Shown here: positions 14,293 through 63,270 of the stretch, piece after piece
Numbering within the stretch: position 1 is the stretch's first letter
Layout: every line of letters begins with the position of its first letter
Source of the DNA: Dipteris shenzhenensis
Lineage: Eukaryota
DNA: 64,000 nucleotides
Assembly: GCA_047967505.1 (NCBI GenBank)
Contig: CM106538.1
Reading direction: 5' to 3' (one strand)
Notes under the pieces: generated by a model
Databases searched by the model: none
What the model was told of the DNA's origin: nothing
What the model saw: only the letters and a program-made list of their open reading frames with translations
Translations under genes and position numbers: made by a program

Positions 14293-16971
14293 CTAATTAT
14301 AGCCTTTTCTTTTATAGCTTGACTTCCAGAGTGCTAATGCTCTATCATACGGAAAGCTAGTAACATCATAAGAACAAGAGTATAATCTCAAGCTAAGATC
14401 TAAGTTATCATCTAGCTTATTACGAAGCTTATTCTTCAAGTAACCGAGAGTACTAAAACACCTTTCATCCTCAACTGAATCAAGAATAAAGGTTTGACAT
14501 AAATTTGCAAGCTTGAAGTACTCAGAAATGTTATCTTGTAGGAATGTACTGCGAGAGAGCTCGTTCCAAAGCCGAACCATCGAACCTTGCATTTGAACGT
14601 TTTCCATTAAATTACTTTGCTAGTGCATGACTTCTCCAAAAAGGGAAGACTGTGAATAAAGCTTTCCAAAATCCAACAAACCATTGTACTTTATATTGTC
14701 CATGTCAATGTCCCGTCCAAAGTGTTTTTTGAGAGCATCCAAATGATTCTTTAGACCTGCTTTGATACTTTCATAAGATCCATTGACACAAAAATGTGGA
14801 AATATGATGGTAAATGCTTCCATTAGGTCATTTTGTGGAAACCTACTTCTAATCTCATCTACCACTGCACTTGCAACTTCACTAAGGGCATTTTTCAATG
14901 TTTGTACTTTCTTTAAAAAAGCCTCTTTTTTAATGTATTGTAGTTTTTTGTGTCATTTGTTTTCTCTCGTCATCCTGAAAACCTGATTGTTTGCACGAAG
15001 GTAAACATATCCTTCCTGGTCACATGTTAAAAGTGAGGAGTCCCCATCTAGGTCTATTAAACTTTTCCAATCTTTAAACAATTTCTCGTCTTGAAAACTG
15101 GAGCTTGACTTCTTATCGTATGCTGTTGTTATACTCAAATTAGTGAGTTTTATTGCCTTGACATATTCATTGATATAAATATCCTTTGATTGTGACATTT
15201 TACTCAACATATTCATTTTGTCTAAAAGTGGAATAATTCCACACAATCCTAATATCGAATCTATGTTGGTCAGTTTATGATACTTTTCAACCTCTTCTTC
15301 TACCTCCATGTGCATTAAATAGACCAAAGTCTTGTATTCATCCCATAATCTTTTCACTAGCTGAACCAAAGATATCGATCTAGTATCCACATTCTTCAAA
15401 ATCTTCCTCCCTTTTGTACCCAGTGCTTCTACAATAACTCTAAATTGATTGTATCTTTTTGGACTCTTGCAAAAGTAAGAGTAGCTTTTTTTAACCAACG
15501 TCTCGATTCGTTGTACTGATGGAAATGTGGACACAACTTTGTAAGCTAGATTTGTGCGATGAGTCATACAATGTATCCCAACACAGTAAGGAGTATATTT
15601 TGTTTCTATTTGTACAGAGACACCATTCCGAAAACCTTGCAAGACTGAAGCACCATCACATGCAAAACAAACAAGTTTCTTGACCATCTCAGACTCTATC
15701 ACGCCTCCATACTCTTTTAAAGCTTGGATCAAAACTTGCACTAAGTTATTAGCATTGGATTCTGAATTAAGTTTGTGTACATGTAAAAAATATGGTTTTC
15801 TCTTATTGTTTTCTACCACGTACAAATGCATTCCTAACCACGATGTAGTATCCACAGCTGTGTACTCATCCAATGACACATAAAAAAATTCTGCAAGTTT
15901 TAAAGTCTCCTTTAAATCATCAATTATGACTTGGTTCATGTGGTTAGCCATATTTGTTGCACTACTCCTTGACCAATGCATGCTTGCCAAATTAGGAACA
16001 GATTCCAAAAATTGAAGATATGATTGGTAACCCAAGAAGTCTATCAGTGAGTGGCCTTGCTTCAATATTTGCATGATAGTTGAGAATTGCACTATCTTTT
16101 CTCTATCAACCTGATCATCGATACATTCCCAACGCTTTTTCAATGATCCTTCACTTTTATTTCTGCTAGACTCTTGTGCAAGCAAGAACTTACTGTACTC
16201 AATCTCATTTTTTAATTGGCGGTTATTTTCCTTGTCCCATTCTTTGATCACTTTCTTTTCATTACTTGTACCTTCTATAGTCTTGTAAACCTTCCCACAA
16301 TGCTTCTCAATCATATCAATCTTCAATTGTAACCATGCCTCCTTTTTCCTTGCCCATGTGCATATTTTACAAATGGCCCACTTTGGTGCATCCCCAGTGT
16401 CCACTTGTTCTACATCTAACTAAGGATATTTGGCTACCCAATCTTCTTGAAAATTCCTACGAATATCCCAAGCTCTCTTTCTCTTCTGCTTACTTGAAGA
16501 GTTGCAATTTTGTGATGCATTCTCAATGGCTTCTTCAGTTGGTGTTGACATTGATGATACTTTTTCTGACATTTTTCCACTTTCCAATCCAGTTAAATCC
16601 ACTACCTCATTATTTGTCAATGATGTGCCAGCTGATGAATTTTCAATTCCAATTGCATTCCCTTGATTACAATTTTGTGATCCTGTCTTCCCTGCTTCCA
16701 AGACTTGAAAACTCAAATCCCTGTTAAAACTATCATCGTTAAGCAATGATCTAGAACATTGATTTCTAGCATGATGCATTGTGCCCAAAGCATGTTCAGG
16801 AGTCCCATAAATTGCTTCATGATTCATGGATGATGAACTTGAGAGTAAATTCTCTGGTGTACTTGATGTTGTAAACATGTTTATATTAGTGCCCAATGAT
16901 GTAGAAGGTAATAAGAAAGATGTCATTTTTGTATTTTTCTCTAGAGCTTGAACTTTCTTCTTTCTTCCCAT
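14293..16971 (-). pseudogene. hAT transposase (DUF4371/ZNF862-like plus hATC dimerisation domain), one frame with 3 premature stops
   Basis: Four ORFs share a frame; motifs RRNFQEDWVAKYP, CKIC, SLDE, ACDGAS, HCMTHRTNL, SVEDERCFSTL..LKNKLRNKL; stops at 16420, 14953 and 14620. Confidence 0.92.
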
Positions 16972-17325
16972 GATAAGTACCTGTATAAAAAATTATGTTT
17001 TTATCAGCAATTGAGCATAAAATAGAACATAATTTCTTTTCTCTAAACACATGCTGAAAAAATAGCATAATAATTCTTATCCTTATAAAATTATGTGCAC
17101 TTCAAGTGCATTGCAAATCAAGTATAACACATCTTCCAAGAGAAGAAATACTTTAATTTATTTTCATACAAATCTACTATATGAATACAAAATGAATACA
17201 AGTCCACCACATGAATACAACAAGATATTGCTAGCTTCAAAGCAACATTCATCTCATCAATTGGCCGCATTGCTAGACTTGCATTACATCCAAAGCAACA
17301 TTCAAAGGTAGATTGAGTATATTTT

Positions 17326-31881: not shown

Positions 31882-31954
31882 TCAAGCGACATCAGAAGAG
31901 GCTACCAAACAGGTGCAACAACTCCAGGCCAAAAAACAAGAGTTGCAGCATCCT

Positions 31955-32670
31955 CTCTAACACATCTTCTCATAATGTCATCCTTGCTGCAATGGTACAG
32001 TTGTCCGGCAATCAATTGGTAAGGGGTTGCATCCTTGATCAGCTTCCTTACGCGTTCTTTGTTTAAGGGATGGTCTTGGGGAAAAACATTGGTCAAAAAA
32101 TGTCCTATCTTTTTTGCCCATTCAGGAATAAGGTCGACCAAGAATAATGAAGCATTAGGTAGGTCATCATCTACTCCTGTGGGTGGTTCTCCATTAGGGA
32201 TTCTAGACATATGGTCAGCTAAAACATGTTGTGACCATTTACAAACCACAACGGTGAAATCAAATTCAAGGAGGATTAACATCCATTGTGTGATTCTTCC
32301 TGTCATATAAAGCTTGTTGACCAAGTACAACATTGCTTGGTGATCTACACAAAACACAAATTTGTTGGCCAAGAGGTAATGCATGAATTTCTTCATTGCA
32401 TACACCATGCCTAACCCTTCGCATTTAGTCGTTGTATAGTTCATCTCAGTGGAGTTCAACTAGTGATTGGCAAAGTACACTAGATAATCTAAGTTGTATT
32501 CTCCTAGTTGTGCTAATACACACCCAATGGCCACGTTCAAAGCATCTACATGGACATGGAATATGAAATCCCAATGGAGGTCTCAATATGGGTGCACTTG
32601 CGAGTGCGTGCTTAAGAGTTTCAAAAGATATTTGGCACTCATCAATCCATACAAATATGGGTTTTAACAT
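31955..32670 (-). pseudogene. Ty3/Gypsy RT-RNase H fragment
   Basis: SFETLKHALASAPIL, NYTTTKCEGLGMVYAMKKF..VDHQA..LEFDF..LADHMSR. Confidence 0.9.
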
Positions 32671-33214: not shown

Positions 33215-33481
33215 TAAATAAAGTTCTTGGAGATAAATAAGACAACACTGAAAACGAAAGATAGCTGAAGAAGAAATATATATCACCAAAGGAACTCAAT
33301 ACAAGAGAAGAGATATGTGCGAAAGAAACTATGGAGGGGGCAAACAGCAGTCCTCCAGAGTAGTCAACTGAAGTGGGCTCTGCACTAGCTCCACAAGTTG
33401 GAACTAAACCAGATCTAGGTCAGCAACCTATTGCCAAAAGAGCAAAGGTTTGCTGCAGATCTGCAAAGAAGGGCAGCAACA
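33215..33481 (-). repeat. inverted copy of the distal half of the Copia LTR
   Basis: Reverse complement aligns with ~36735-37002. Confidence 0.9.
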
Positions 33482-36400
33482 ATTCCAGATCACTGCTGAT
33501 GATGATCTGAAGGTAAAGCTGGCAGACTACCAACGGTTAATTGCTGAGTTTGCCACAACTGGTCCTCCCAAATCCGAGGATGACCAAGTTACTTTCTTTT
33601 TGAACAAACTCCCACCTAAGTACTTCAGTTTTATGCAGCAAATCATTTCTCAACCCTCCCTTCCTACCTTTTATGAGTTCGAATGTCAACTCTTGCGTTA
33701 TGCTCGTCTCTACTCTCAGGTTCACCAAAAACATAGTGTTCCTGCTTCAGAGGGGGCTCTTCTCTCCGGGATTCAAAAAGATCAACTCAACTCTAAGAAG
33801 CCCTCTCCCACTCCTGACTCCAATAATTCCTCTGGTATTAAACCCGCCTGGCACAACCTTCTAAAAAAGAACCGGTTTTGTCAGCATTGCCAGAAAGTTG
33901 GGCATGTTGATGACGAATGTCGCTCCAAAGCCGAAGGCATTCTCCCACAACCCCCCAACACGACTCTTCTGCCACCTCGCTGGCGCCCTAGGAGTGGTCC
34001 TCCTCCACCTAACGCTAGCCCTTGGAGACCATAGGGCCATGTCACTAATCAGTTCACCCCATCCCCTCCCTTCATCACTCCCGAAGGCCTGTCTGACTGG
34101 TCCACTGGAGATTCTCTAGACTTCACTTCCCAGGCCTTGATCCATATCACCGAGCTTGACTCCTCCCCATCCATATCTGGATCAGCATTTCATACTCTAC
34201 CATGTGGCCATAAAGCCCCTTGGATTGTGGATAGTGGAGCCACTCATCATATGACCCCTCATCGTGATCTCTTCATTTCTTGCCAACCGGCAACAGGGGG
34301 AGTCCGCTGTGGCAATAACTCTGTCGCTCCTATTCGTGGCGTTGGTTCAATCAAATTTGATACCGACAAAGGCCCCAATCTTGCTCAGTTGGATCAAGTG
34401 TTTTATGTCCCCCAATTAGGGGTCAATCTTCTTTCCATCCATCAACTTTGCCTTCTTAGTCGTGCGGTGCTATTTACAAAGACGCATGTCGAAATCATAG
34501 ATGAGACATCAGGACTCCTTTTAGCTCAGGGCGAAGCCCAACCTCATGGTCTGTACCTCATGACACAATTTCTTGAGACTCCCTCCAATACCGGCTCTGA
34601 GTTTCATCGGCTTCATGGTCTTGCTACCCTGAAAGATCCGACTGACACAGAACAATTGTGGCATTATCGACTGGGACATTTGTCCTATGACTCTTTATAT
34701 GAAATGTCTCGGGATCATTTGGTTGATGGCCTACCTCAATTATCACGAGCCAAAGATATTTGCTGTCCATGCCAATTAGGCAAACAAAGCAGATGGAACC
34801 CTAGACAAGTACAAAGCTCGCTTAGTAGTGCAAGGATTTCGCCAAAAACATGGTATCGATTATGAGGAAACCTTTGCACCTACTACTCGGTTGACATCCT
34901 TTCACCTCCTCCTCGCTCTAGCTGCTCATCACAGCTGGTCTATCTATCAGATGGATGTCAAGAGTGCCTTTCTCAATGGCTACCTCGATGAGGAAGTCTA
35001 TGTGGCTCCCCCACCAGGTTTTTCTCCTCCTAGCCATGAAAATAAGGTATTCCGTCTCCGCAAAGCTCTTTATGGGCTTAAACAAGCACCTCGGTCCTGG
35101 TTCCACCGAATAGACACCTTCCTCAAAACTAATGGGTTTCATTCCACTCCTTTTGATCCGAATTTATATATACATCAATCTTTAGAGGGGGTCTGCTTTA
35201 TCTTACTTTACGTAGATGATCTTTTGCTTTTGGGCTCTACCACCACCACGCTTCAATCCATTAAAACACAACTCAGCACCACATTCGAGATGACCGTCGA
35301 TCTTGGTCTTCTCTCCTATTTCTTGGGCATGGAAGTTGAGCAGCATTCTGGTGGTATCTTTGTTTCTCAATAGAAATATGCTCTTCAACTCCTTGATCAG
35401 ATCATCCCCCACGAGCCTAAGCCAGCTGCCACTCCCTTGGATCCCACAGTCAAGCTCTCAAAGGACTTGAAGTCTCCTCCCTTTGATGAACATCTCTATC
35501 GTCAAGTTGTTGGCAAGCTACTCTGGCTCATTCACACTTGTCCAGATCTTTCTTACTCAGTTTCTATTCTTAGTCAGTACTTTAATGAACCCAAGCACAC
35601 TCATTGGCATGCATGTATTCGTATCTTACAGTTCATACGTGGTACTTACTCTTATGGTTTACATTTCAGACCTCGACTAACACTACAGGGATACACTGAT
35701 TCCGACTGGGTTAGAGACTCGGACAATCCCCGTTCTCATGGTGGCTACATTTTCTCGTTCGGCTCGGCACCTGTTTCTTGGTCCAGCCGTAAACAAGAAA
35801 CTGTTGCTGGATCTTCTACTGAGGCTGAATACCGGGCCTTGTATGATTGTACCACAGAGGCCATATATCTCCGGCAGTTTCTGGCAGAGCTACACTTTCC
35901 TTGTACTGAACCAACGGTCCTCTACGTCGACAATAAAAGTGTCATCGCTCTCGCCGGCAATCCCATTTTCTCCAACCGCACCAAACATGTTGGCGTACAC
36001 TTTCATTTTACTCGCGAGCAAGTGGAACTGGGTACTATTCGATTGATATATGTTCCAGCTGCCGATAATCATGTTGACATTCTTACCAAGCCGGTTAACT
36101 GACCTTTTCTTGAGCATCTTAGCCCACAGCTGGGGATTGGTGTACCGCCTCCTTCTCCTTGGCAGTATTTTTTTTGTATACTAGTGCTTAAAGGAAGTGA
36201 ACAAATCCCTTGTGAGGGCACTCCTTAAGCATCTCTCTTTCTGTACTCTATGATTGTACCATCACTACTGGGCATTTAGTGAAGATGAAAACCTACTTTG
36301 TAGGCATCTCCATCTAAATGAAAACCCTCTTACCCAAAAAAAAAAAAAAAAGGGCTGATGATGAAGATAGATCACCCCTGGAACCATTTTTTGATTACCC

Positions 36401-42320: not shown

Positions 42321-44129
42321 CTTGAAGGTTTCTTGCCTAGTATGTAGGCTGTGAGCTATTCTAGTAGCATGATGCTCCCTTGGTGGAGAAGACCATTTTG
42401 CCTTGACTCCTCATCCTGCAACTCCTTTGGTCATGGCTGCTTGCCTAGCATCGCGTCTCGTTTGCCACAATAGGGGGCTTTGGTATGCCCATGAGGATGT
42501 GAGTGCACCAATGCCTCCTACTATGGCCAAACAACTCCTCATGTGTCTTGGAATCCCGTTTGGTGCCTCATGTGAATCTAATAGCCATATGGTCTCATGG
42601 TAGAGAGGACCATCTGCCTTGGCTCCCCATCTTGCAACTCCTCTAGTTGTGGCTATGACTAGTTAAGCATTGTGGGCTAGTGAGCCCATGCAATACGTGC
42701 AAGAGAGGATAGTTACACCATGATAAACTTAGGTTGTAGCAAATTCATAGGGAGAGAAATGAGGCTTTCATAGTGTTGAAGGGGGGTAGTGGAGTGCTTG
42801 GGGAAAAGCCTCTTGGGTCCTTTATATAGCTAGGCTTAGGGGGCTTACCACGCTGGCCCTTGCTCAACTATCAATTCTTCTTTGTATGTTCAATCCTGAG
42901 ACCTTGGGTGTCATACATGACAAAATCCCCTGTTGGATTTGCCATCTCAGAGTTACCATCATGATCTCCTCGAAATTTTTCCATAACCGTCCTAGAATTG
43001 ACTTGATGTGACGATGATCAAGAAGGGATAGCGGGTTGGATCTCTAACCTATCGGTCTCATTGGAGGCCCCATCATTTAGTACATCACGTCATGTGACTT
43101 TTGGTGCCTCTCCCTAGAATCATCACACAATTTACGTTGGGATTTCACTTTGCAAGACCATCACAATTCTCCTTGTTATTCTGGTAAAGATCAATACTTT
43201 CCGTTGCCTAAGTGGTAGTGGTAGTCATTTTCGTCAGTGCCAAGGTCGGTGATCGATGGAACATCCATAAGATGTTCATCTTAGAACATGGGATGGATTT
43301 TTTGATCTCTATGGTCAGATAAGGAGAGAGTATCCAGATAGCACAAGGACTGTGAATCTTAATAATGTAATAAAATACATGACTGCTTTCAAAACCAAGG
43401 AATGATGGGACATTGCATGCGAATTCATGATTGATTTTTATGTAAAACAATGGCAATCTCTTGTTCCTTAATTTTAAGGTTGCAACGCCCTTCAAAAGGG
43501 GTTTTCCTTTCTAGAGAAGGGAGAAATTAACCTTAAAAAAGGAGTGCTAATTTGGAAAAATTTTCTTTTAGTGCACTACGAAAATAATTGAAAATAGCTT
43601 AACTAGAAATATGACTTCTGAATTGCCATTCAAAATGAAATTCTAGGCTATCCTTAAAATTTGAGACTAGGCAATGCCAATGCTTGTCTGCTACAATGGT
43701 ATACTTATTAGTATGCACATTCATGAGATTGATGGTGGTTGTAGAAATTGATGTCATTTCTACAGTCTGCATGCATGCAGTAATCATAATTGATTTTGGT
43801 TAGTAATCATTCATTGATAGGCACGCAAAGAGTGAGACTGTAATCATTCATTGATTTTAGGTAGTAATCATTCACTCATAGGCATGCAAAGAGTGAGACC
43901 ATGGCTCTTCCTCCCACCATTAGAATTTACGAGCTCCACCCTCTTCCGTGGTCTCCATTCTCTCTGACCTCCACCCCCTTTACAGCCTTCCCTCCTGCAT
44001 TTCCTTTGTGTGTACAACACTAATCTTTGCATTGTCCACCCTCGATCACTTCCTCTGACCTCTACAAGCTCTACCGACTAGGTATTTTGTTGATTTCAAG
44101 ACCTCTCATGTTTTTTAAATTTGCTTTGT

Positions 44130-44560
44130 TGTTCTAATCATCACGATGCGATTAGGGTCCCTTCATCAATTTTAAAACTCATGTATCGCAAACGGATGAT
44201 TTCAACACTCCCTTATCATTGATTTGAAACTCACGTTATCGCATTCTGATGATTCTAACACTTTCTTATTGCCTTGTCATTCAGATCATCACAACATGAT
44301 TAGGGTCCCTTCATCGATCTGAAACTCATGTATTAAGTTATGATGATTCTGAGATTTCCTTATAGCTTTGTTGTTTAGATCATCACAATGCAATTAGGGT
44401 CCCTTCGTCGATTCTAAAACTCATGTGTGTATCATGTCCTGATGATTTTTACACTCCCTTATCACTTTCTCATTTAGATCATCACAATGCGATTAGGGTC
44501 CCTTTGTTGATTTTGAAACTCATGTATCACATTCTGACGATTCAGACACTCCCTTATCAT
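44130..44560. repeat. 4 diverged tandem units of ~100-150 bp
   Basis: ATCATCAC.A...ATTAGGGTCCC..AAACTCATGT at ~44137, 44285, 44379 and 44478. Confidence 0.85.
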
Positions 44561-45073
44561 AGATGGCTAGAGTAAGCTGATAGTTAGGCTATTGAAAAAA
44601 AGTGTTCCCAAGAACGAGGGAGGGTGCAAAATTTTCAATAGTATTCATCATGTGTCCTCATGAATATTAGAAGGTCATTGAAACATATTTTGTGCACCAT
44701 ATCCATTCTCCCTTTCTAGCAACTTGTCAGGTCCATAGGCAAACACTTCAAATTGAGAACACAATGGCAAAGACCTAGCCTAGGAGAATTGCATGAGGCT
44801 GCCAAGGATTTCTTGGTCAAGTTCTTCAAGGATAGCTATGTCTTGGCAACCCATCCTCCATTGCACTTACTCAAGTTTTGGTTCAACTAATTATTAGGAA
44901 AAAAGGGAGCTCATTTTGGGGCCTTTTAGGGTTTAGAAAAATAGGCTCTCGACCAATCAGAAGAGGAGCAACATAATGTTGGAAAAATACTAAAAACCAT
45001 GTAAAAATATAAAATAAGTCATATTCAAAATCTTTTTCTTTTATTATGTCTGACATACGTGATCTTCAAAAGA

Positions 45074-45331
45074 TGATTTTCTATGCAGTATTTGATGATT
45101 CTGATATCGCCAGCACGTTCGGAGTGAGCCAAAACCCCCAAATCGACCCTAGAGACATCGAAAACCGATGCTTGGAGGCCTGCTCCAGCAAATCCTCCAT
45201 TTTGAGCATTTTTGCCCTTTCCTAGGCCTCCGGGCGTCGGTTTTCGGTGTCTCCAGGGTCGATTTGGGGGTTTTGGCCTACTCCAGACGCGTTGGTGATA
45301 TCAGAACTATCAAATATTGCACAAAAAATCA
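45074..45331. mobile_element. foldback/MITE-like hairpin with ~108-bp arms
   Basis: 45074-45181 is the imperfect reverse complement of 45224-45331; 42-nt loop. Confidence 0.8.
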
Positions 45332-45877
45332 AGCAAAGAAAATCCGAGAACCGATTTACCGTTAGACCCAACACAATTGTTGTTGAAGAGCACATTAGCA
45401 TAGCAACACCAAAATGTTTAGAAATCAAAGCAAAAACTCATGCTTACAAATATAGCTTGTGTAATCATCCCAACTCTAGTGATTTGCTTTCTAAGAAGTA
45501 ATTACAAAGCTTCGAGGGCAAAGATTGGTAACAAAATATTAAAATATAAATATGTGGAGGCAAGGAAGAAACAAGAGGGCATGAGCATTGCCCTATGCCA
45601 AAATAAAGGGACATCAAGCTAGAAAGGAAGGGTCCATAGCTTCACTTAGCTGAGCTTTTCTTCCATTTTCAGCTTTCCTTCGCTTTTCAACATAAATCTT
45701 GAAGCCAAAACTAATGATTCCATTAAAACTCTCGACATAGAGTGGGCTAAACATAGAATTGTTTTTAAAAACGGCAAAATTGGGTAGGGCTAATAATACA
45801 GAACTTGATGGAGAGAGCTCACGTGTAAACAAGTAGTTTCTTTTCAAATTTCCGAGTGTGGGATGCGGTTGTAAAGA

Positions 45878-46745
45878 GACAGATCATCTTTGCTGGCCAA
45901 AAGCATTTCGACGATAGCCGCACCTTGGCCGACTACAACATCCACAAGAAGAGCACCCTGCACTTGGTGCTTCGCCTGGGAGGCGTCATGCCCATCACCT
46001 TTGGTAACGTCAAGACCAAGATTCCTCCTCTTGAGAGCCCCAATACCTGCAATGCCAAGGTCAAGATTCAAGCGAAGGAAGACGTCAACGGAGAAAGTGA
46101 AGGCAAGAGACGTGATGATCAGGTCATCGGTTATGGGAAGACCATCACCCTTGAAGACAACAAAGGTATCCCTCATTCAGATGTTCATTTTATTCATGGT
46201 TCGTGTCTAGGACAAACCGTTAAGACCGGCCTAGATACTGACAACGTGAAGGCCAAGATTGAAGAAAAGGAATGCAACAGTTCAGATGACCCAAAGGCCA
46301 TCACCATTGAAGGCATTGGTTATGGGAAGGCCATCAGCATCGAGGGCATCTTTTCTAATCTGGATTTGAAGACTAGCTTGGAGACCGGGAATGTGAAGGC
46401 CAACACTCATAACAAGACCAGGGAGACCCGCTCGGCTACAGACAATATGAGGGCCAAGATTCATGAAAAGGAAGGCATCCGCCCAGATGTCCAAGTCATT
46501 AATTTTGTTAATCTTCATGGCAAGTATCTAGGCCAGTCCCTAAGATTCTTCAAGTGGAAGAGACATGTATGGTCGAGAGAGCCTGTGTGGACGATTACTC
46601 GCTTAAAGGTGGTAGACAGTTTTGTAGACTTTACAAACTGTCTACCAGGTCAAAAGCCTTGATGCTACAAAGGAGCAGCCCAGAAATACCAGACCTTCAA
46701 AGCCCTTTTTCAACAATCCAACACTTGGAGTGGAAACCATTTTAA
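45878..46745 (+). pseudogene. degenerate tandem ubiquitin/ubiquitin-like repeats, 5'-truncated
   Basis: [30 protein letters not shown], then [34 protein letters not shown]. Confidence 0.85.
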
Positions 46746-47674
46746 ACACAGTGTTTAGGGCTAAAGGGAAGATGGTCACAGGTTCTAAAGCAAAAGTGTT
46801 CACATGTTGGGTTGCATGTCCCTCAGATTCCAATCATGAAGCCTTGGCCTTTACGGCAGGCCACTGTTTTACAAAGGAGATGTTATCCTTGAGGTACGCA
46901 GAGAACAACATGCTAGATTTTGAAAAACACAATTTCTCAGAATTGGTGGGATGTTTTGGAATTGATGTTGGCCGTGTAGAATTCAATACCTTTGGTTTCA
47001 CATGCTCATTGAAGCCATTGGTGATTGTAAGTGACAATGAAGATATTGCTCTCTTTCCAATGACAAGTGGAGAGATCCACCATTTACTATTGCCATGTAG
47101 TGTGGAATTGGAGTGTGGGAACAACAAGTTTATGGTAGTATTCTCTTATCCCTGCGCACAAACTTTTGTTATTCAGGCATATGAAGAATTAATTGAAGGA
47201 AGGGTTGATCATGGGATTGGAAACCTTTATTCATTCATGGGATTGAATAATGCTCAGCTATATCAGTTGCTAGTAGAAACTTTCCAGGAGTTTAACGATG
47301 GCTCTTTGGTTTGCTCACCGGGAGCCCTGGAGAAAGTTGAAGCCATATATTGCTGCTACAAATGTAGCACCGTTGGTGGTTCAAGTGGTGGACCTGCCAT
47401 GCCCACTCATCTACCTGGGTACACAGTGGGGATCCATGATGGAGCGGTCCAATATCAGGACTACAACATGGCCACATCGACGGACTCACCAGCATTCGTT
47501 ACAATATATGCACAGTTCGTGCTACCGAGGCTCCCTTGTAAAGATAGCAGCTTTTGGGTTGGTTGGAACCTTGCACCATTTGAGCGGTGGCTTAGCAAGC
47601 ACCATTTGGTATGGGGGGGATCAAACAAAAGAGGCAACAGGATAGGATGGACTTGGCTATCATTCCAGCAGTGA
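46730..47674 (+). CDS. trypsin-like (PA clan) serine protease domain, probably the C-terminal part of the ubiquitin-repeat ORF
   Basis: TAGHC (His), EDIAL (Asp), STVGGSSGGP (Ser) in order within a 314-aa uninterrupted frame. Confidence 0.75.
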   Translation: METILNTVFRAKGKMVTGSKAKVFTCWVACPSDSNHEALAFTAGHCFTKEMLSLRYAENNMLDFEKHNFSELVGCFGIDVGRVEFNTFGFTCSLKPLVIVSDNEDIALFPMTSGEIHHLLLPCSVELECGNNKFMVVFSYPCAQTFVIQAYEELIEGRVDHGIGNLYSFMGLNNAQLYQLLVETFQEFNDGSLVCSPGALEKVEAIYCCYKCSTVGGSSGGPAMPTHLPGYTVGIHDGAVQYQDYNMATSTDSPAFVTIYAQFVLPRLPCKDSSFWVGWNLAPFERWLSKHHLVWGGSNKRGNRIGWTWLSFQQ

Positions 47675-50600
47675 AGCGGGTGGAACTTACCCAAGAAGGA
47701 GAAGCTGAAATACGAATCAAGCAAGACAGATGAAGAAGATGTTGTCACACCGCCACCAACCCTACGAGCTCCCTTGGCTTTGGTTACTGACTTTGATTGA
47801 GCAACGGCTCCTTAACATGCAATGCATGGTGGTGTTTTTTAGCTTTGCTTGGTTGTATATCAAATTTCCTTTTTTTTTCATGCAGCATGTAATCGTGTTG
47901 TACATGAAGCTCAATACATGGAATTAATGATAAACCATGGGCTAATTGAAGATCATCCTTAATCGTGTTTATTGTTCTAAGCTAGCACATGTCTTCCCTC
48001 TACCTGGAATTGCTTTTCGTCTGATGGCACTGACTTATAACATGCATTTTATTATACGGTGTAGTTTAAATTCTCTTCGCTTGAAGTCTGTTGCTTCTTT
48101 TTTTGTCCTCGCTCAATTTTTTGTAATCCACTTTTAAGGTGCACCACTTGGTTTTTGATAAATCCCCTTCAATGTAGTGCCATGATGACTTTATGAGCCC
48201 TTATATTGAATAGCTCCACAACCAACGTTGTTAGTATTAGCAGAAATCAGAGCCCGACATACCTGAGTCATCAAGATTATAGTGGCATGTACATAGTTGC
48301 ATATGAAACATGTTTCATACCTGAATGAAATGTTTCTGAAATGTGTAGACGTTTTGTACGTTTGAATCACGTGTATTATGCATCTTTTAAAAAAAAAGAA
48401 AACTATTGAAAAAAAAATTTTGAGATTTTTTTTTAATTTTAAAAAAATCATAAATATGAAGTAACTTTCATGACTTTTCCTATTATTATATATCTGAATA
48501 ATAGTGACTACTCTATTTTTCACTAATATTCAGGTGTAGAATAATGAAAGACAATTCATGAACTATTATTATGCATATGAAGTTTCTACTTAGTTGGAAT
48601 TGTGTTTCTTTGTGCCATAGATGCATCAATTGCAACAAGGACTATGGTGACATGTGCATATATGATATTTCTACATCTGAAGTTTCTACTCTCATTACAA
48701 AACAGGGTAATATATTCCATTCAAAACGAATTATATAACGCGTGGGGGAGTAAGAACTCTATTCCTCACCTCAACAATGTGACAGAAAAGCCAGGGGGGT
48801 GGTCTATAATGCCACGACATCCCTAGTAGCGTCAAATGAAAAAATAAAGAGCAGTCCTAGGTTCTCATGAAAGAAATCAGTCTCTCTCAAGTTGCTGCAG
48901 AGGACCCGGTGCATCTATCCCACCGACTCCTAATGGAAGAGATAATCTCAGTCCATATAGCAATCTAAATATGAGCCTCTATGCTACGGCAACCCCTAGG
49001 ATGTGTGCACATCTCAAGCACCAGATCCACCAAAAAGTGATACTCGATATCACCTCCCAAGCTGATCCCGTTGATAAAGAAGGTAGTGAATCCTGAGCTA
49101 GAAGAGGTATCAAAAACAAATCCTGCGGATCCATGATACTAAAATCTGTAGGACTGCGCCTCTGTCGAGACTGCATGAAGAAAGCATGATCACCACCCTC
49201 AGACTCATACAAGGCAAAAGCACCTGATCCCCTGCCCCAAAGAGCTTAGCCCCACGTTATCGTGAAGGACTCAGAAGTAATATGAGAGAACAGTCGGAAG
49301 ATCCCGGTCCAAACCACCATAGCACTATGACACGTCCATAAGCAGTGCTTTCATGATTCCTCTGCAAGCTGACATCTCATACACAAAGACGGTCTACCCA
49401 TCTGACAAAGCCAAGAACCCACTAGGATACCTTTGTGTATAGTGAGCCAAAGAAAGTGTGAGAACTTCCTTGCTCTACTCATCCCAAAAAAATGAGTCCA
49501 ATAGCTCGACATGAGCTGCTCTGTGATCCCCTGTGCCTGCCAATGCTGAACTACTGAGGGTAAGTAATGGGTGGCTCTCTGCTGAATCCGATACCCTGCT
49601 CTCGTGGAATATTGAAAGAACTGCAATGGAGCATCCGATCCTAGAGGGGCTGGCCAAGACTACTCACCTGGATCCCAGTCAAGTCCCCTGAGCGGTCTAC
49701 CCTGGAAAATCCATAACCTCGATCTGGTCTCCTCTGTGACTGTCAAACGTGAAGGATCAAGAGACCACTCCTTCCCCAGGCATCCAATCACTTTGATCCT
49801 CTGCCAATACAGACCTGCTCCAGTGGCTGCGTAGGGGTGAGTCTGTGAGAGGAGTCTGCTGAAAAATAAATAAACGGAGCCGGTCCCAACCTCACTCCAA
49901 TGCACAAGCCAGTCTCATCGAAATAGCCAGACCAAATACAGTCAGCCGGGAGATTCTCTTGGGATGTTGTAAGAGTATCCCTCCAAGGCTGAGGAATGGC
50001 TCTCATGATCTGAAGTCTGATAGGAGCCACCCGTAAGAGTGGTCCATGTCTAGCAGCAATATTCTCCTCTGTGATCTCCTGATCTCCCCTAAACCAATCT
50101 CCCACAGAAGACAACCCGTGAGAGTGCCACCTCGCTAGATTGGTCCTGGGCTTTGTGCCAAGAGGGACACCCTGATACTGTATCAATGTGTTATGGAAGA
50201 GTGGTTGCCTGGCAATTTCCTCTCTGGAGAAAGGAATTGCCCGAATGAGGTACGAATGGAAAAGGGCCCAAATCTGGATAAGCCTTCTCACCAATGGAGA
50301 AGAAGGTTGAGTGTGATGATCCGTCAAAAAAATCCAACCAACACTACCAGGCCACTAACCTACTACCTTAGGAACACATTGTAGGACTCCATGTACAAGA
50401 AACTGCTTCCATGGCTAATCTCCTGGAGTCAAACCTCTGACCAGAAGTTTGACTAGAAGTGCCCTACTCTGGAGCTCCAGATCAAGAATCCCAAGATCTC
50501 CCTGTGCTGTGGGTAGGGTGATAGTGGCCCATGAAACTCTCACTCTAGTGTCCTCTGTACCATCCCTTCCACTCCAAAGAAAGTTCCTGAGCAGTCTCCT

Positions 50601-54735: not shown

Positions 54736-57700
54736 TGACATAAAATGAGCACCTTTTTGTGATGCAGCATATGGTTAACTCCATGACAGGAGATGTTGCA
54801 GCTTGCAATGATGTTTGGTATGTTGATTCAGGTGCTTCTAACCACATGACCACTCATGATGAGTGGTTTCATGATGTCAGAAATCTGAATAAGCTAGGTT
54901 ATGTTGAAACAGGTGATGATAGTGCGCACCCAATTACGTAAGTTAGTAAAGTGCCATTGGCTATGCAGGATGGCAAAACGAAGTACTTGGCAAATGTACT
55001 TCATGTTCCCAAAATCACCAAGAAGCTGGTTTCAGTTGGCCAGATGGTTGAGCAAGGTCTGCAGGTCAGATTTAATCTTGATGGATGCTTTGTTGAGGAC
55101 TTGAAAAATAAGTGCCGCCTGGTTACAAAAGGCAACAAAAATGGCAGAATGTTTACCTTGGATGTTGATATGCCTGAGGTGAAGCTGCTATGTTTGCGCA
55201 TGGGAGAGGTGTCATTGCAGATATTGAGATATGGCACAAGTGCATTGGGCACGTGAATATACAAAGGCTGAAATCTATGCAAACGAAAAACATTGTTGCA
55301 GGTTTGTCTAAATTCAGAGTCGAGGGAATGTAAAAGGTATGTGAAGCATGCCAAATGGGCAAGCATGCATTTCTAAAAAATGCTAAGGTGAGCAGAAGGC
55401 CTTTGGAAGTGATCCACTCAGATGTGTGGGCAACCAAAGCTGCTTCTATTGGTGGATGCCATTACTATGTGACGTTTATTGATGACTACACTAGGAAGGT
55501 GTGGATTTATTTTATGAAACACAAAAGTGAAGTGTTCAGCTATTTCAAGGCTTTTAAGGCCATGGTTGAAAAAGAGAAAGGTGTGCACATTAAGGTGCTA
55601 AGATCTGATGGAGGGGATCTGATGGAGGGGGAGAATACTTTTCACAAGAATTCAGTGAATATCTGAAAGAACCGGGAATTAAAAGGAAGTACTCATGCAG
55701 GTTTACCCCTCAGCATAATGGGGTTGTAGAAAGGAAGAACATGCATATTGCAGAAGTAGGACGAGCGATCCTAAATGAGAAAAATATGCCAGACTATTTT
55801 TGGGCTGAAGCAGTAGCAACTGCTGTTTATATTATGAACAGAACCCCCACTGCAGCTGTCCATGGCATGACACTTGAAGAAATGTATACAGGTCAAACCA
55901 AATATTTTTCACTTGACGGTATTTGGTTGCATAGCTTATGTTCATGTTCCTGATGAGAAAAGAACAAGGTTGGATCCAAAGGCAGAAAAATGCATCTTCA
56001 TTGGATATGCTCTGCATCAGAAAGGGTATCGCTGTTATAACCCTTCCACTCGCAAAATGCAAGTGAGCAGAGATGTTGTCTTTGATGAAATGAGCAGTTG
56101 GTATGCACCAACTGTTATGGTAGGAGATGCAGATGCAGGAAATGGGAATGCTGTAGTAAATGCACAGCAGCAATCTCAAGCCTTGAGTGGACCAGGAGAG
56201 TTCTCTACTAGTGGATCTAATGCATGGACAGGGAGATTCAGATCTAGTGAATCGTCACATGGCAGTTTTGATAGTGTTGTGCAGGTATCACTGTGCAGGT
56301 ATCACGCAAGGGAAAAGAAAAGGTGGACCATGCTCCAGTGTTTAATGTCTCAGCTGGTAGCTCTCGTGTTGATGGAGAGTCAAGTGGCTTTGAAATGAGC
56401 CTTGATGAGGTACTGGGGATTCCCTCTGTTGTTACACCTGGTGTAAGAAAAAGCATTAAAGACTCTTGCAAGTGATCCAATTGTATGCAGGTCCACTCGT
56501 GTTAAGTATCCAGTTGACAGGCTGAGATATGATGGGTATACATCACATCACTATGCTTATATGGTGAAGGTTCTAGAGGGACCAGAGCCCACATGCTTTG
56601 AGGATGCAGCAGGGCATAACAATTAGGAAGCGGCAATGGATGAAGAGATGGTTGCCTTGGATGCAAACCACACTTGGGATTTGATGCCTTTGCCTCATGA
56701 TAAGAAGGCTATTGGTTGCAAGTGGGTTTACAAATGGTCTTTGCATCAGATCGATGTGAAGAATGCTTTCTTGCATGGTGATTTGCAAGATGAGGTGTAT
56801 ATGATGCAGCAAAAGGTTACGAGGATGATGCACACCCCGATTTTATATGCAAGTTGCGCAAAGCCTTGTATGGCTTAAAACAGGCGCCCAGGGCATGGTC
56901 GAACAAGATAGGGCAATATCTTGTTACTATCGGATTTCAGATTTCCAATGCAGATTTTTCACTTTATGTGAAAAGGACAGACAAGGGGATTGTGCTTGTA
57001 GTCATCTATGTTGATGACTTGATCATTACAGGTGATAGTGATGCAGATATAAATCAAGTGAATCTGCTTTTGAAGCAAAAATTTGAGATGAAAGATTTGG
57101 GAGAGCTGTGTTACTTCTTGGGCATTGAGGTTATTAGATCCCTAAGTGGAATATGGCTGTTGCAGAGGCAATATGGTTTGAACATGCTGTCCAAATATGG
57201 GATGATAGGCTGTAAGCCTATTTCTGTTCCATTGGAGCAAAATGTGAAGCTCAGTGCAGAGGTAGGTGAACTTCTTGAAGATATTACTATGTACAGGCGC
57301 ATAGTAGATAGCTTGATTTACATGACTATCACCAGACCAAATTTGAGCTATGCTGTGGGGTTGGTGAGTCAGTTTATGCAGGCACCAAGGAAGCCACATT
57401 TGGATGCGGCTAGATGCATACTGCGGTATGTGAAGTCCTTATTGCATTATGGATTGTTTTATGAAGCTGGGTGTGCATTACAGGTACATGGGTACACAGA
57501 TGTTGATTGGGCTGGTAGTGTCTCAAACAGGAGATCTACTAGTGGTTTTATGTTTTCCCTTGAGAGTGCTACCATCTGTTGGAGCAGCAAGAAGCAGCCC
57601 TTGTCGAGCACAGAGGCTGAGTACAGGGGTGCAACTATGGCTGCATGTGAGGTAGCTTGGTTATGAAAGCTACTTGCAGATATGGGACAATCAGTTCATG

Positions 57701-59918
57701 CAACAGGTTTCATTCCTTGTGACAACATTAGTAGCATCATGCTTGCTAATAACCCAGTTTATCATGCTAGAACAAAGCACATTGAGGTGCATTACCACTT
57801 TGTGAGGGAGAAGGTTCTAGCAGGTGAGATTGACCTTGTATATGTGAGCACTGAGGAGCAGGTGGCTGATATTTTTACGAAGGCCTTGGGTACCGAGAAG
57901 CTTCGCAGATTTAGGAGCTTGCTTAGTGTACTTGAGATGGATTTGAGCTTGAGGGGGAGTGTTGAGATATCAAGCTCTAGCCCCGATGTATCTCCTGGGT
58001 GACTATCATTTATGTCACCGCCTATGTTGGTTGTACTCGTGGTGTAGTTAGACTGCCACGTCTATTTTGGTTTGGGTTCACATATGAACCACGTATTCTA
58101 GGGTATATCCCTCTCCTATTGTATTGTTGTTGTGTGCTATTTTCAATTGAGTGAAGATAAGCTTCAGCCTCCACATCTTGTGTCCTCCCTCTTGTGTATG
58201 TTGTGAAGAAGCTGCAATCGAGTCTCCTTCCTCTCTCCCACATTCTTTACACATGTGTCCGTCAGGGCCAGTGAAAAACTTACGACCATTCAGGCCCCTC
58301 ACAGGAAAGACTAGGCATGAAAAGAGGGTGAGGTAGAGCCACTGGCCACAACATGGATGTCCCTGGGAGAGGAATCGGACCATAAACCTTCCCTAGCTGA
58401 AGGCCATACCTGACTGAGCTGAAGATCAATAGCATCCTGAAGTGGAAAGGAACACTGCCGAGAGTGGAGGCCCTGAAAGTCGAACCACCCAACACAACGG
58501 TTTAGAGGGATCTCCCCCAAGAGTCTACCTCTTGGGGCCCTTCCTGATCCACATGAATCGAGGGAGAGGACTGACGGGAGACCGGAAAGGCTGCTGGCTC
58601 AAAGTCATCTGGAGGGGGCTGAAATGGACCCTCAGCCCCTGCACTAGGTCGTCTGCTGGGGCAATCCCTAATAAAGTGACCTCTCTTGCGACAGAAAAGG
58701 CACTGGTCAGGAAGACCCTCATACGAGACTCCTTGTTGGATCTGGATTCCATCACCAGTAGGATACAAAATCAAAGTGGGAGGAGGGCGAGGAGGAGAAA
58801 ACTCTGAAGTAAGCTTGACCCTAGTAACACCTGTACCGGCAAGGGACTGAGCATAAGATAAACGAGCACGTGAGGAAGAGATGACTGTGCCTACCACACT
58901 AGCCATATGCTCCACAGCTCTGCGGCAAGAACTGATCTCTTCTGGAAGACCAGGGAAAAGCATCCAAAAAGAAACTTCTCTCGGTCCAGGTGAGGTAGCA
59001 CTGAAATGCTTCCGCCAAGGCCATGAATGAATGACTCTGCTCTGATAGTGAAGTGGTGAGTTCATGAGCACCCTTTGGGCCTACTCCATTGACTGGAGCC
59101 CAAGAGAAAAGTAACCTCTGCCAAGCAGTCTAAAAACACTAACTGGGACACTGAGCGAGGCCATGTTGATGTACAGCCAATCACATAATTGTTGGCCTCT
59201 ACCCAGTAGAAAGCCAATAATGTGCATCAGTCGAAAACCCTCCTCTGCTGCCTCAATCATCTACACAATGTCTAGAGGGAAAGCAACCGTAACTTTCTAC
59301 TTCCTCAGGTTGGGCAACGGGGCATTGATGTCCTACATTGTCTCTCAGCTATTGCTGTCGTGAGGGAAGGAGCTACCCCTGCTAGAATTTTCTACTCTCA
59401 TTGAAACTGTATTTATACGTGCAATAGATGTATCAGTTGTAGGGACTATGGTGATATGTGTATATATGATACATTCCTTGAAATAGATGTGGTTTAGGAT
59501 GAGGATGAGGATAATGATGAGTCTTGACTCTTGACTCTTCACTTATCACTGATTTTCATGAAGATCCTGGGAGGATCATTGAGACTGTGATTTCCTATTT
59601 ATGCTTCATGAACCATATGTAATCTCCTTTCAGTAGTTATTCATCTACATTCCATGCTTTTGACTATTGCTTCCAGCAGGCTCCAGCTATTATGCCAAAT
59701 TATGCTCATGGCTGCCACTGCAATACAAATCCCACCCCTATTGTCAGCTGCTGGACTCCAGAAAGTCCTACTCTGGCCTCTAAGTGAAGAACTGCATCTG
59801 TCAATCCTATCCTGAGACAGCTTGTGCTCCTGAATGAGCACAATATCCGGAGGAGAGCCTGAAGACATGAGCCGGAGGGAGTCTCTAAGTATCTGCAATC
59901 TAGGTACTCCTATCCTGT

Positions 59919-62464: not shown

Positions 62465-63270
62465 TTAGAGGGATCTCCCCCAAGAGTCTACCTCTTGGGG
62501 CCCTTCCTGATGCACATGAATCGAGGGAGAGGACTGATGGGAGACCAGAAATGCTGCTGGCTCAACGTCGTCTGGAGGGGGCTGAAATCGACCCTCAGCC
62601 CCTGCACTAGGTCGTCTGCTGGGGCAATCCCTAATAAAGTGACCTCTCTTGCGACAGAAAAGGCACTGGTCAGGAAGACCCTCATACGAGACTCCTTGTT
62701 GGATCTGGATTCCATCACTAGTAGAATACAAAATCAAAGTGGGAAGAGGGCGAGGAGGAGAAAACTCTGATGTAAGCTTGACCCTAGTAACGCCTGTACC
62801 GGCAAGGGACTGAGCATAAGATAAACGAGCACGTGAGGAAGAGATGACTGTGCCTGCCACACTAGCCATATGCTCCACAGCTCTGCGGCAAGAACTGATC
62901 TCTTCTGGAAGACCAGGGAAAAGCATCCAAAAAGAAACCTGTCTCGGTCCAGGTGAGGTAGCACTGAAATGCTTCCGCCAAGGCCATAAATGAATGACTC
63001 TGCTCTGATAGTGAAGTGGTGAGCTCATGAGCACCCTTTGGACCTACTCCATTGACTGAAGCCCAAAAGAAAAGTAACCTCTGCCAAGCAGTCTGAAAAC
63101 ACTAACTGAGACACTGAGCGAGGCCATGCTGGTGTACACCCAATCACATAATTGTTGGCCTCTACCCAGTAGAAAGCCAATAATGTGCATCAGTCGAAAA
63201 CCCTCCTCTGCTGCCTCAATCATCTGCACAATGTCTAGAGGGAAAGCAACCATAACTTCTACTTCCTCAG
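62465..63270 (-). pseudogene. duplicated LINE ORF1 (zinc knuckle)
   Basis: Near-identical to 58502-59071. Confidence 0.88.

Follow-up and report, generated by a model that had tools for sequence, protein, structure and literature searches.

A truncated polyubiquitin sequence joined to a fern-family trypsin-fold protease: a probable lineage-restricted chimeric gene, decayed in Dipteris shenzhenensis

A stretch of 64,000 nucleotides from contig CM106538.1 of the Dipteris shenzhenensis assembly GCA_047967505.1 (hereafter the window) was analysed for a + strand locus in which sequence derived from ubiquitin is followed by a serine protease. Three overlapping open frames were found at 45829-47800. 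On balance, the locus is best read as a lineage-restricted chimeric gene, in which a 5′-truncated polyubiquitin sequence was joined to a protease of a fern family, with the frame being intact in close relatives and dead in the genome of the window. The initial annotation, made from the sequence alone, had placed a degenerate polyubiquitin fused to a trypsin-like protease at 45878-47674. Its proposal that both parts belong to one gene was borne out by a single open frame in relatives.

One gene in close relatives

Evidence from relatives was taken from contigs, not reads, of four of 22 listed public runs (15 of the 22 contained matching sequence, with no RNA dataset listed among those 15). The four runs (X1 to X4) represent four different related organisms, here called A to D, and are approximately 98-99% identical to the window. 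Counts of differences refer to those listed; 70 substitutions and 15 insertions or deletions (indels) lie outside the listing, and only for the contig of organism A is the listing complete. Runs X1 to X3 have no contig over 45300-45800 or past approximately 48000, whereas X4 spans all bins; the gaps are given no weight here.

The frames in the window are frame 1 (45829-46662, 277 aa), frame 3 (46512-46745, 77 aa) and frame 2 (46628-47674, 348 aa from stop to stop, then 47675-47800). In the relatives they are connected by three differences. An additional G after 46530 was present in all three covering runs (X1, X3 and X4; X2 lacks coverage), the relatives reading AGGG and the window AGG, and this first frameshift at 46530..46531, which is also the fusion junction, agrees with the change to frame +3 in tblastn alignments. 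An additional C after 46667 was present in three of the four runs (X1, X2 and X4; in X3 the contig stops at this position), in agreement with the tblastn change from frame +3 to frame +2 at 46667..46668. Finally, A is replaced by G at 47674 in all four runs, which turns TGA into TGG. When these three corrections alone or all 25 differences of X1 were introduced, the frame was open for 657 codons, beginning at 45829 and closed by the stop at 47798-47800; counted from the first Met, the corrected frame has 604 codons, of which approximately 179 are ubiquitin-derived. The 1883-nt contig of organism A is colinear over 45977-47857 with 23 substitutions and 2 single-base insertions, and the 1445-nt contig of organism D (45899-47426) also bridges the ubiquitin-derived part and the protease. 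Since a single open frame covers both parts in relatives, the fusion is considered real and a chance juxtaposition is effectively excluded, and since the contig of organism A is colinear, no intron is needed, as had been annotated initially. The two frameshifts proposed earlier are likewise seen, but they lie after 46530 and 46667, as placed by Adiantum homology and the insertions of the relatives, and not near 46550 and at the T run near 46705. The gene end assigned to 47674 had to be given up: the TGA there is premature, homology continues to approximately 47776 and the frame stops at 47798-47800.

The junction is located at 46525-46531, and homology to the 478-aa Adiantum capillus-veneris protein P0001 starts at residue 54 of the latter. 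The 56 residues of P0001 before the start of homology had given the impression by eye of being ubiquitin-derived. This was ruled out by a shuffle test and BLASTP: the Smith-Waterman score against the ubiquitin-derived part was 22 at a shuffle mean of 23.5, with 1284 of 2000 shuffles scoring as well or better, and the best BLASTP match of P0001 to the ubiquitin-derived part had an E value of 2.7. The N-terminus of A. nelumboides P0007 gave a best E of 1.0 against the ubiquitin-derived open reading frame (ORF). Moreover, the Pfam ubiquitin domain was found in none of the 40 sequences of the family alignment (the window protein and 39 relatives); therefore the fusion is, as far as visible, confined to the small group of the window. 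The linkage by which a chance juxtaposition was to be judged thus holds in close relatives and was not seen across the family. No longer fused homolog (542-2000 aa) was present among 834 candidates, which is weak evidence, and a scan of viral contigs gave 15 pattern matches, none of them confirmed. A limited literature search, from which absence cannot be proven, returned no report of such a fern fusion, and no literature on DUF7481/PF24297 was found.

The polyubiquitin-derived part

By its sequence, the segment 45877-46524 is derived from polyubiquitin and is not itself a polyubiquitin gene. Coordinates of the parts, and those of the triad codons given below, were worked out by hand from translations, sequence and tblastn alignments. 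The C-terminal half of a ubiquitin unit (residues 41-76; 45877..45987, frame 1) is directly abutted by the N-terminal part of a next unit (approximately residues 1-37; 45988..46089). Pfam ubiquitin was detected at aa 18-50 of the frame-1 ORF (E 3.9e-7, 30.2 bits at a cutoff of 25.4), and in a phmmer search of the PDB aa 17-87 were aligned to polyubiquitin chains without a break over residues 41-76 of one unit and 1-37 of the following one; single ubiquitin chains matched the frame-1 ORF with E of approximately 3.5e-11. Head-to-tail units free of spacers are a trait of polyubiquitin genes, and the unbroken junction therefore points to a polyubiquitin gene as the source and not to a lone ubiquitin-like domain. 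No ubiquitin similarity was found 5′ of 45877. A stop is located at 45826-45828 upstream of the C-terminal half, and the first in-frame ATG, at 45988-45990 (codon 54), encodes the Met with which the second unit begins.

Eroded pieces of ubiquitin N-terminal halves follow at 46090..46524, all in frame 1, and contain the direct repeat families D1 to D3. The eroded middle (46090-46527) was matched by di-ubiquitin at E of approximately 1e-5 and by single ubiquitin at approximately 0.06, one affilin di-ubiquitin chain matching over aa 32-137. A 38-mer coding for the NVKAKI..KE helix occurs in four DNA copies (at 46043, 46235, 46382 and 46436), and GKTITLE-type DNA repeats start at 46125, 46281 and 46314. 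In translation, GKTITLE-type pieces lie at approximately 46126-46158, 46291-46314 and 46315-46347, and NVKAKI..KE-type pieces at approximately 46207-46272 and 46366-46416. The last and best of the eroded units (46426-46524) corresponds to approximately residues 14-48, with a match over ubiquitin 17-46, and aa 200-226 of the frame-1 ORF were aligned to ubiquitin 19-45. The eroded N-terminal motifs annotated initially are thus confirmed by the di-ubiquitin match and both repeat types, although Pfam alone is blind to them: none of five sub-segments of the eroded repeats, scanned on their own, matched Pfam ubiquitin.

In total, one C-terminal half, one N-terminal half and approximately five shorter N-terminal pieces are present, the last ending at 46524 near ubiquitin residue 48. 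Lys, Ile, Gly, Thr, Asn and Glu are abundant in the extension of approximately 180 residues. No complete 76-residue unit ending in GG was found in the ubiquitin-derived part, and no piece covers the whole ubiquitin fold. The C-terminal half proposed initially was recovered by Pfam and phmmer, but its supposed LVLRLGG end was not: the sole ubiquitin C-terminus aligns as LRLGGV instead of ...RGG, and it sits upstream of the first in-frame Met. Natural ubiquitin fusions and pestivirus ubiquitin insertions are cleaved after GG by deubiquitinases. Because no ubiquitin-GG precedes the protease, such cleavage is unlikely here, nor is the ubiquitin-derived part likely to be cleaved or to fold as ubiquitin does. 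Self-processing, as suggested earlier, is accordingly unlikely.

At 45906-46006 and 46209-46309, word depths of hundreds to thousands were contributed by 44-81-nt contigs of runs X1 to X3, which have 2-4 mismatches to the window and then continue into unlike sequence. Most simply, these are the relatives' own ubiquitin genes or transcripts; as they still match, the captured DNA remains close to real ubiquitin.

The protease part and its family

The protease part begins with a pre-domain in frame 3 (46531..46667), which is homologous to P0001 aa 54 to approximately 105 with a read-through alignment score of 120; in the tblastn alignment, aa 54-125 of P0001 correspond to 46530-46706 (frame +3, 43% identity, E 1e-10). 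It is followed in frame 2 by a domain of the trypsin fold (Trypsin_2/S1B-like, 46668..47671), and P0001 aa 108-476 were aligned to 46667-47776 (frame +2, 55% identity, E 2e-131). This alignment reads through the premature TGA at 47672..47674, where Trp is encoded in all four relatives and in Adiantum. The C-terminal tail (47675..47800) is homologous to Adiantum up to 47776 in the tblastn alignment and ends with the ancestral stop TGA at 47798-47800. The tail of the window clade reads ...TPPPTL... and is unlike the ends of distant relatives, where short basic C-termini resembling nuclear localisation signals (NLS) were read by eye in P0009, P0010, P0015, P0016 and P0036.

Only two close homologs were found among 5.8 billion proteins (word-indexed search, 169-541 aa), both of them hypothetical proteins of Adiantum capillus-veneris with 58% and 54% identity. 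By an exhaustive profile search 36 relatives were collected at E ≤ 0.001, 16 of them at ≤ 1e-10, including proteins of A. capillus-veneris, A. nelumboides, Selaginella moellendorffii, the green alga Symbiochloris, Physarum and Acrasis. All bear either the annotation hypothetical or a generic one (serine protease; Peptidase S1 domain-containing protein). The window protein stays below the Pfam threshold for Trypsin_2, its only match being a weak one to DUF7481 (18.8 bits, cutoff 26.1), and the same is true of its nearest relatives with regard to Trypsin_2, which was passed by 7 of 19 more distant relatives scanned; at E ≤ 0.01, it was detected in 15 of the 40 aligned sequences.

An AlphaFold2 model based on the 40-sequence alignment reached a pLDDT of 81.3 and a pTM of 0.84; an earlier model from a 3-sequence alignment (pLDDT 29.9) was discarded. 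Foldseek against the PDB gave at least 500 matches at E ≤ 0.001, with V8 protease ranking first (3e-10), and the matches to V8 protease, Esp, DegP/DegQ, HtrA1, Rv3671c and the protease domain of FAM111A ranged from 3e-10 to 1e-8. VIA structural alignments gave Z scores of 19-20 over 175-203 residues, with a Z of 20.2 for 1wcz (193 residues aligned, root-mean-square deviation (rmsd) 2.6). The predicted model thus shows the two beta-barrels of the trypsin fold that mark the PA clan. The family profile matched the staphylococcal glutamyl endopeptidase Esp with E 1.1e-12. In the alignment to the Esp S235A chain, the mutant Ala faces the second Ser of GGSSGGP in the window protein, and the His and Asp of the window fall on the Esp motifs LTNKHV and SDLAIL. 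The triad codons are located at 46862-46864 (His), 47042-47044 (Asp) and 47384-47386 (Ser), within alignment columns ..GH.., D.A. and GSSGGP, which agrees with the complete triad reported initially. In comparison with Esp, two features are specific to the family: an additional helical segment located between the barrels, and an extension of the C-terminus that is conserved. No PDZ domain was found in the protease frame with Pfam, and no signal peptide was evident by eye in the frame translations. As judged from profile alignment and model, the protease part is a divergent PA-clan serine protease of the trypsin fold with a complete His/Asp/Ser triad. It belongs to an uncharacterised eukaryotic subfamily near the Trypsin_2/S1B enzymes.

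State of the window copy and selection in relatives

Compared with the four relatives, the window carries two 1-base deletions and one nonsense codon. Differences common to all four runs comprise 9 non-synonymous (the stop included) and 2 synonymous changes, a ratio close to the neutral expectation of 25% synonymous. The relatives share the Adiantum state at 46923, 47136 and 47674, and that of the window looks derived. The three lesions together with the 9:2 ratio of branch changes speak for a real pseudogene and against errors in the consensus. A 5′-truncated pseudogene, as annotated initially, thus probably stands, lesions being seen against both Adiantum and the relatives. The intact version that had been expected among paralogs is present in a relative, organism A.

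In those lineages where the gene may be alive, the pattern is different. Changes confined to the lineages of A and C are 7 synonymous versus 5 non-synonymous, and in the ubiquitin-derived part and linker 6 of 8 are synonymous against the 25% expected (binomial p 0.004). In addition, the listed length differences in the repeat region of organism C are all multiples of three (9; 11 + 5 + 2 + 6 = 24; 33; 39; 393 plus 9 letters). These data are suggestive of translation of, and constraint on, the ubiquitin-derived part in lineages with a living gene.

Several observations weigh against a gene maintained in the relatives and lost in the window. The contig of organism B has a 5-nt deletion at 47125, and that of organism D a net 85-nt deletion in the repeats and a 2-nt deletion at 47259 (private changes of D: 7 non-synonymous versus 3 synonymous), and decay may have set in throughout the group, organism A being still open for lack of time. 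From lineage to lineage, the proportions of synonymous and non-synonymous changes do not differ significantly (Fisher p 0.09 and 0.07), and the underlying counts are small and unpolarised. The comparison is based on contigs instead of reads, that of organism A being the only one fully accounted for, and both indels of the window fall in short runs (GG and C) and are possible assembly errors. Furthermore, no annotated protein with a ubiquitin-protease fusion was encountered in the protein searches or in the 40-sequence alignment.

Proposed origin and alternative explanations

According to the favoured reading, a 5′-truncated polyubiquitin coding sequence would have been joined inside a ubiquitin unit (approximately at residue 48) to the protease gene from codon ~54 onward. 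Close relatives would possess one intronless frame with a predicted product of 604 aa starting at the Met of the second ubiquitin unit and consisting of approximately 180 aa of partial ubiquitin units, a short pre-domain and the protease with its complete triad. The ubiquitin-derived part would then most likely serve as a captured, translated leader which provides a start codon and an N-terminal extension. The position of the join inside a unit, the 5′ truncation and the lack of introns are compatible with two coding sequences having been joined non-homologously, possibly as mRNAs in the course of retroposition. Neither a clear poly(A) tail nor a duplicated target site was detected, the nearest A-rich tract being located at 48388-48450, approximately 590 nt past the stop. 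If the proposal is correct, the locus is a naturally occurring capture, in which a highly expressed polyubiquitin gene supplied the coding sequence for the 5′ part of another gene; the captured sequence was then eroded yet kept in frame. The practical outcome for the window itself is limited: being a pseudogene, the locus ought to be kept out of the annotated protein-coding genes.

The most serious competitor, which we regard as possible though clearly less probable, is that the fusion is a non-functional chimeric retrocopy in every lineage, formed when mRNA copies of the protease and of polyubiquitin were joined, e.g., by template switching, and open in organism A only by recency. Such an origin would fit an intronless, colinear locus with a 5′-truncated ubiquitin part, its surroundings rich in transposable elements with copia fragments, an architecture seen in no annotated protein, and the independent frame-breaking lesions in the window, in organism B (5 nt) and in organism D (net 85 nt and 2 nt). 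It does not explain readily why a 657-codon frame stays open through approximately 230 codons of rearranged ubiquitin pieces, why 6 of 8 A/C changes in the ubiquitin-derived part and linker are synonymous (p 0.004) and why the listed length variants of organism C are multiples of three, nor does it agree with the lack of a clear poly(A) remnant, since the A-rich tract lies some 590 nt beyond the stop. At the other extreme, the window copy could be intact and its three lesions errors of assembly or consensus. Shortening of homopolymers is a typical consensus error of long-read assemblies, and both indels shorten short runs (AGGG to AGG; CC to C). The third lesion, however, is a substitution (TGG to TGA) without an indel, 8 further non-synonymous versus 2 synonymous changes are found on the branch of the window, and other frame-breaking deletions arose independently in two relatives, so that an intact window copy is very improbable. 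Least credible of all is that an unrelated polyubiquitin fragment and protease pseudogene came to lie side by side by chance. Adiantum homology does begin exactly where ubiquitin similarity stops, and other family members lack ubiquitin, but the junction is in frame in all three covering relatives, one open frame extends over both parts, and the arrangement is shared by the window and the bridging contigs of organisms A and D.

Another alternative, which appears unlikely, assigns a function to the ubiquitin-derived region as a regulatory module, i.e., a ubiquitin-like pro-domain, a degron or a deubiquitinase cleavage site (as in pestivirus) of a conflict or defence protease, convergent with FAM111 or Crinkler proteins. 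The synonymous excess and the in-frame length variation of this region are compatible with it, as are a multi-copy, patchy family and repeated gene death, which would suit a conflict gene. The FAM111A protease domain (8s9k_C) gave the longest structural alignment among the chains listed (Z 19.0, 203 residues), and FAM111A has two ubiquitin-like domains (UBLs) before Trypsin_2 (PMC9798293); a ubiquitin insert of bovine viral diarrhea virus (BVDV) at the NS2/NS3 junction precedes a serine protease (PMC13517609). Set against these are the missing whole ubiquitin fold, with Pfam ubiquitin empty in all five sub-segments, the sole C-terminus reading LRLGGV before the first Met, the absence of a ubiquitin domain from all 40 aligned sequences, and the absence of any FAM111 chain among the best 60 of 98 sequence matches of the family profile. 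Equally doubtful is the broader proposal that in one fern lineage decayed polyubiquitin has become a selected, length-variable N-terminal module of an otherwise unstudied protease family, convergent with the UBL-Trypsin_2 order of FAM111 and subject to fast birth and loss like conflict or immunity genes. If true, it would concern a family which reaches across ferns, Selaginella, a green alga, Physarum and Acrasis and in which some members have NLS-like basic tails. Compared with both, the chimeric gene that is intact in relatives and dead in the window remains the reading we prefer.

Comparison with known systems

The protease resembles Trypsin_2 (PF13365), the MEROPS S1B-like enzymes (V8, Esp and Spl) and HtrA/Deg in its double beta-barrel fold (Z approximately 20, 186-194 residues, rmsd 2.6-2.7). 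With Esp it further shares the aligned His/Asp/Ser motifs and a GIH.GG...YN stretch after the Ser. It differs from Trypsin_2 in that the window protein and its nearest relatives remain under the Pfam threshold, and from Esp in two elements, a helical insert of approximately 35 residues that lies between the Asp and Ser barrels and, at the C-terminus, a conserved extension (...FV..Y...VLP.LP...W...PF..WL). In contrast to Deg/HtrA, a C-terminal PDZ domain is lacking, the extension being a family-specific helical segment in the predicted model, and in contrast to S1B-like enzymes the protease is eukaryotic, with no signal peptide evident by eye. The locus also draws attention to trypsin-fold proteases of seed-free plants and amoebae that form a subfamily of patchy distribution and lack annotation.

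FAM111A and FAM111B are vertebrate proteases with the order UBL-UBL-Trypsin_2 (PMC9798293), and ubiquitin-related sequence before a Trypsin_2-type protease is common to them and to the locus in the window. The modelled protease also resembles the FAM111A domain in structure, as detailed above. However, the ubiquitin part of the window consists, by its sequence, of fragmented canonical polyubiquitin and not of two folded UBLs, and no affinity at the sequence level was seen among the best 60 of 98 profile matches. The architecture in the window arose independently of FAM111, in one plant lineage. A FAM111-like regulatory role of UBLs has a low but real chance of applying to the window gene, where folded ubiquitin units appear to be missing.

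Host enzymes cleave at the boundary between ubiquitin and protease in BVDV. In this pestivirus, host ubiquitin sequence, often in partial units, is captured by non-homologous recombination upstream of the chymotrypsin-like serine protease NS3 (PMC13517609). Capture of ubiquitin directly upstream of a serine protease is the shared element, and the window locus would be a cellular counterpart to the pestivirus captures; unlike the viral inserts, where a complete ubiquitin ends at the N-terminus of the protease, its junction lies inside a ubiquitin unit with no ubiquitin-GG, and it is a cellular gene. The resemblance to both FAM111 and BVDV is one of architecture only.

Crinkler (CRN/CR) effectors, with which a comparison had been drawn initially, are modular proteins that combine a ubiquitin-like element at the N-terminus with an enzymatic domain, possibly a peptidase, at the C-terminus, and are defined by a LxLFLAK-type header (PMC12957317). 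The modular order of a ubiquitin-like element and an enzymatic domain is similar in the window. The ubiquitin part here is decayed canonical polyubiquitin instead of a CR header, and a LxLFLAK-type motif was not seen by eye in the frame-1 translation, so that an affinity to Crinkler effectors is not supported.

Genomic surroundings

The surroundings of the locus are plant-like and rich in transposable elements. Degenerate Ty1/copia elements are located at 33408-36102 (+) and 55871-57666 (+), with gag, Pol beta-barrel, gag-pre-integrase, RVT_2 and retroviral SH3-like matches distributed over several frames; the gag, integrase and reverse transcriptase fragments occupy 33408-35373 and 55871-57666, and a fragment of RNase H was found at 31902-32459. 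Two 192-aa ORFs at 58502-59080 (-) and 62465-63043 (-) have identical Pfam coordinates for DUF4283 and a CCHC zinc knuckle, which suggests a direct duplication, approximately 4 kb apart, of a retroelement-like plant gene. A 488-aa ORF at 14953-16419 (-), with 16420-16992 (-) behind it, has no Pfam match; its only relatives are three distant proteins of 407-819 aa with 35-39% identity, one of which carries PF27073. Just upstream of the truncated ubiquitin sequence, three tandem units of approximately 99 nt that are 62-79% alike are located at 44124-44564. They are followed at 45074-45331 by an inverted repeat of 108 nt (84% complementarity, loop of 42 nt) that resembles a miniature inverted-repeat transposable element or a hairpin. 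A contig of organism D has an opposite-strand joint in the area of these upstream repeats.

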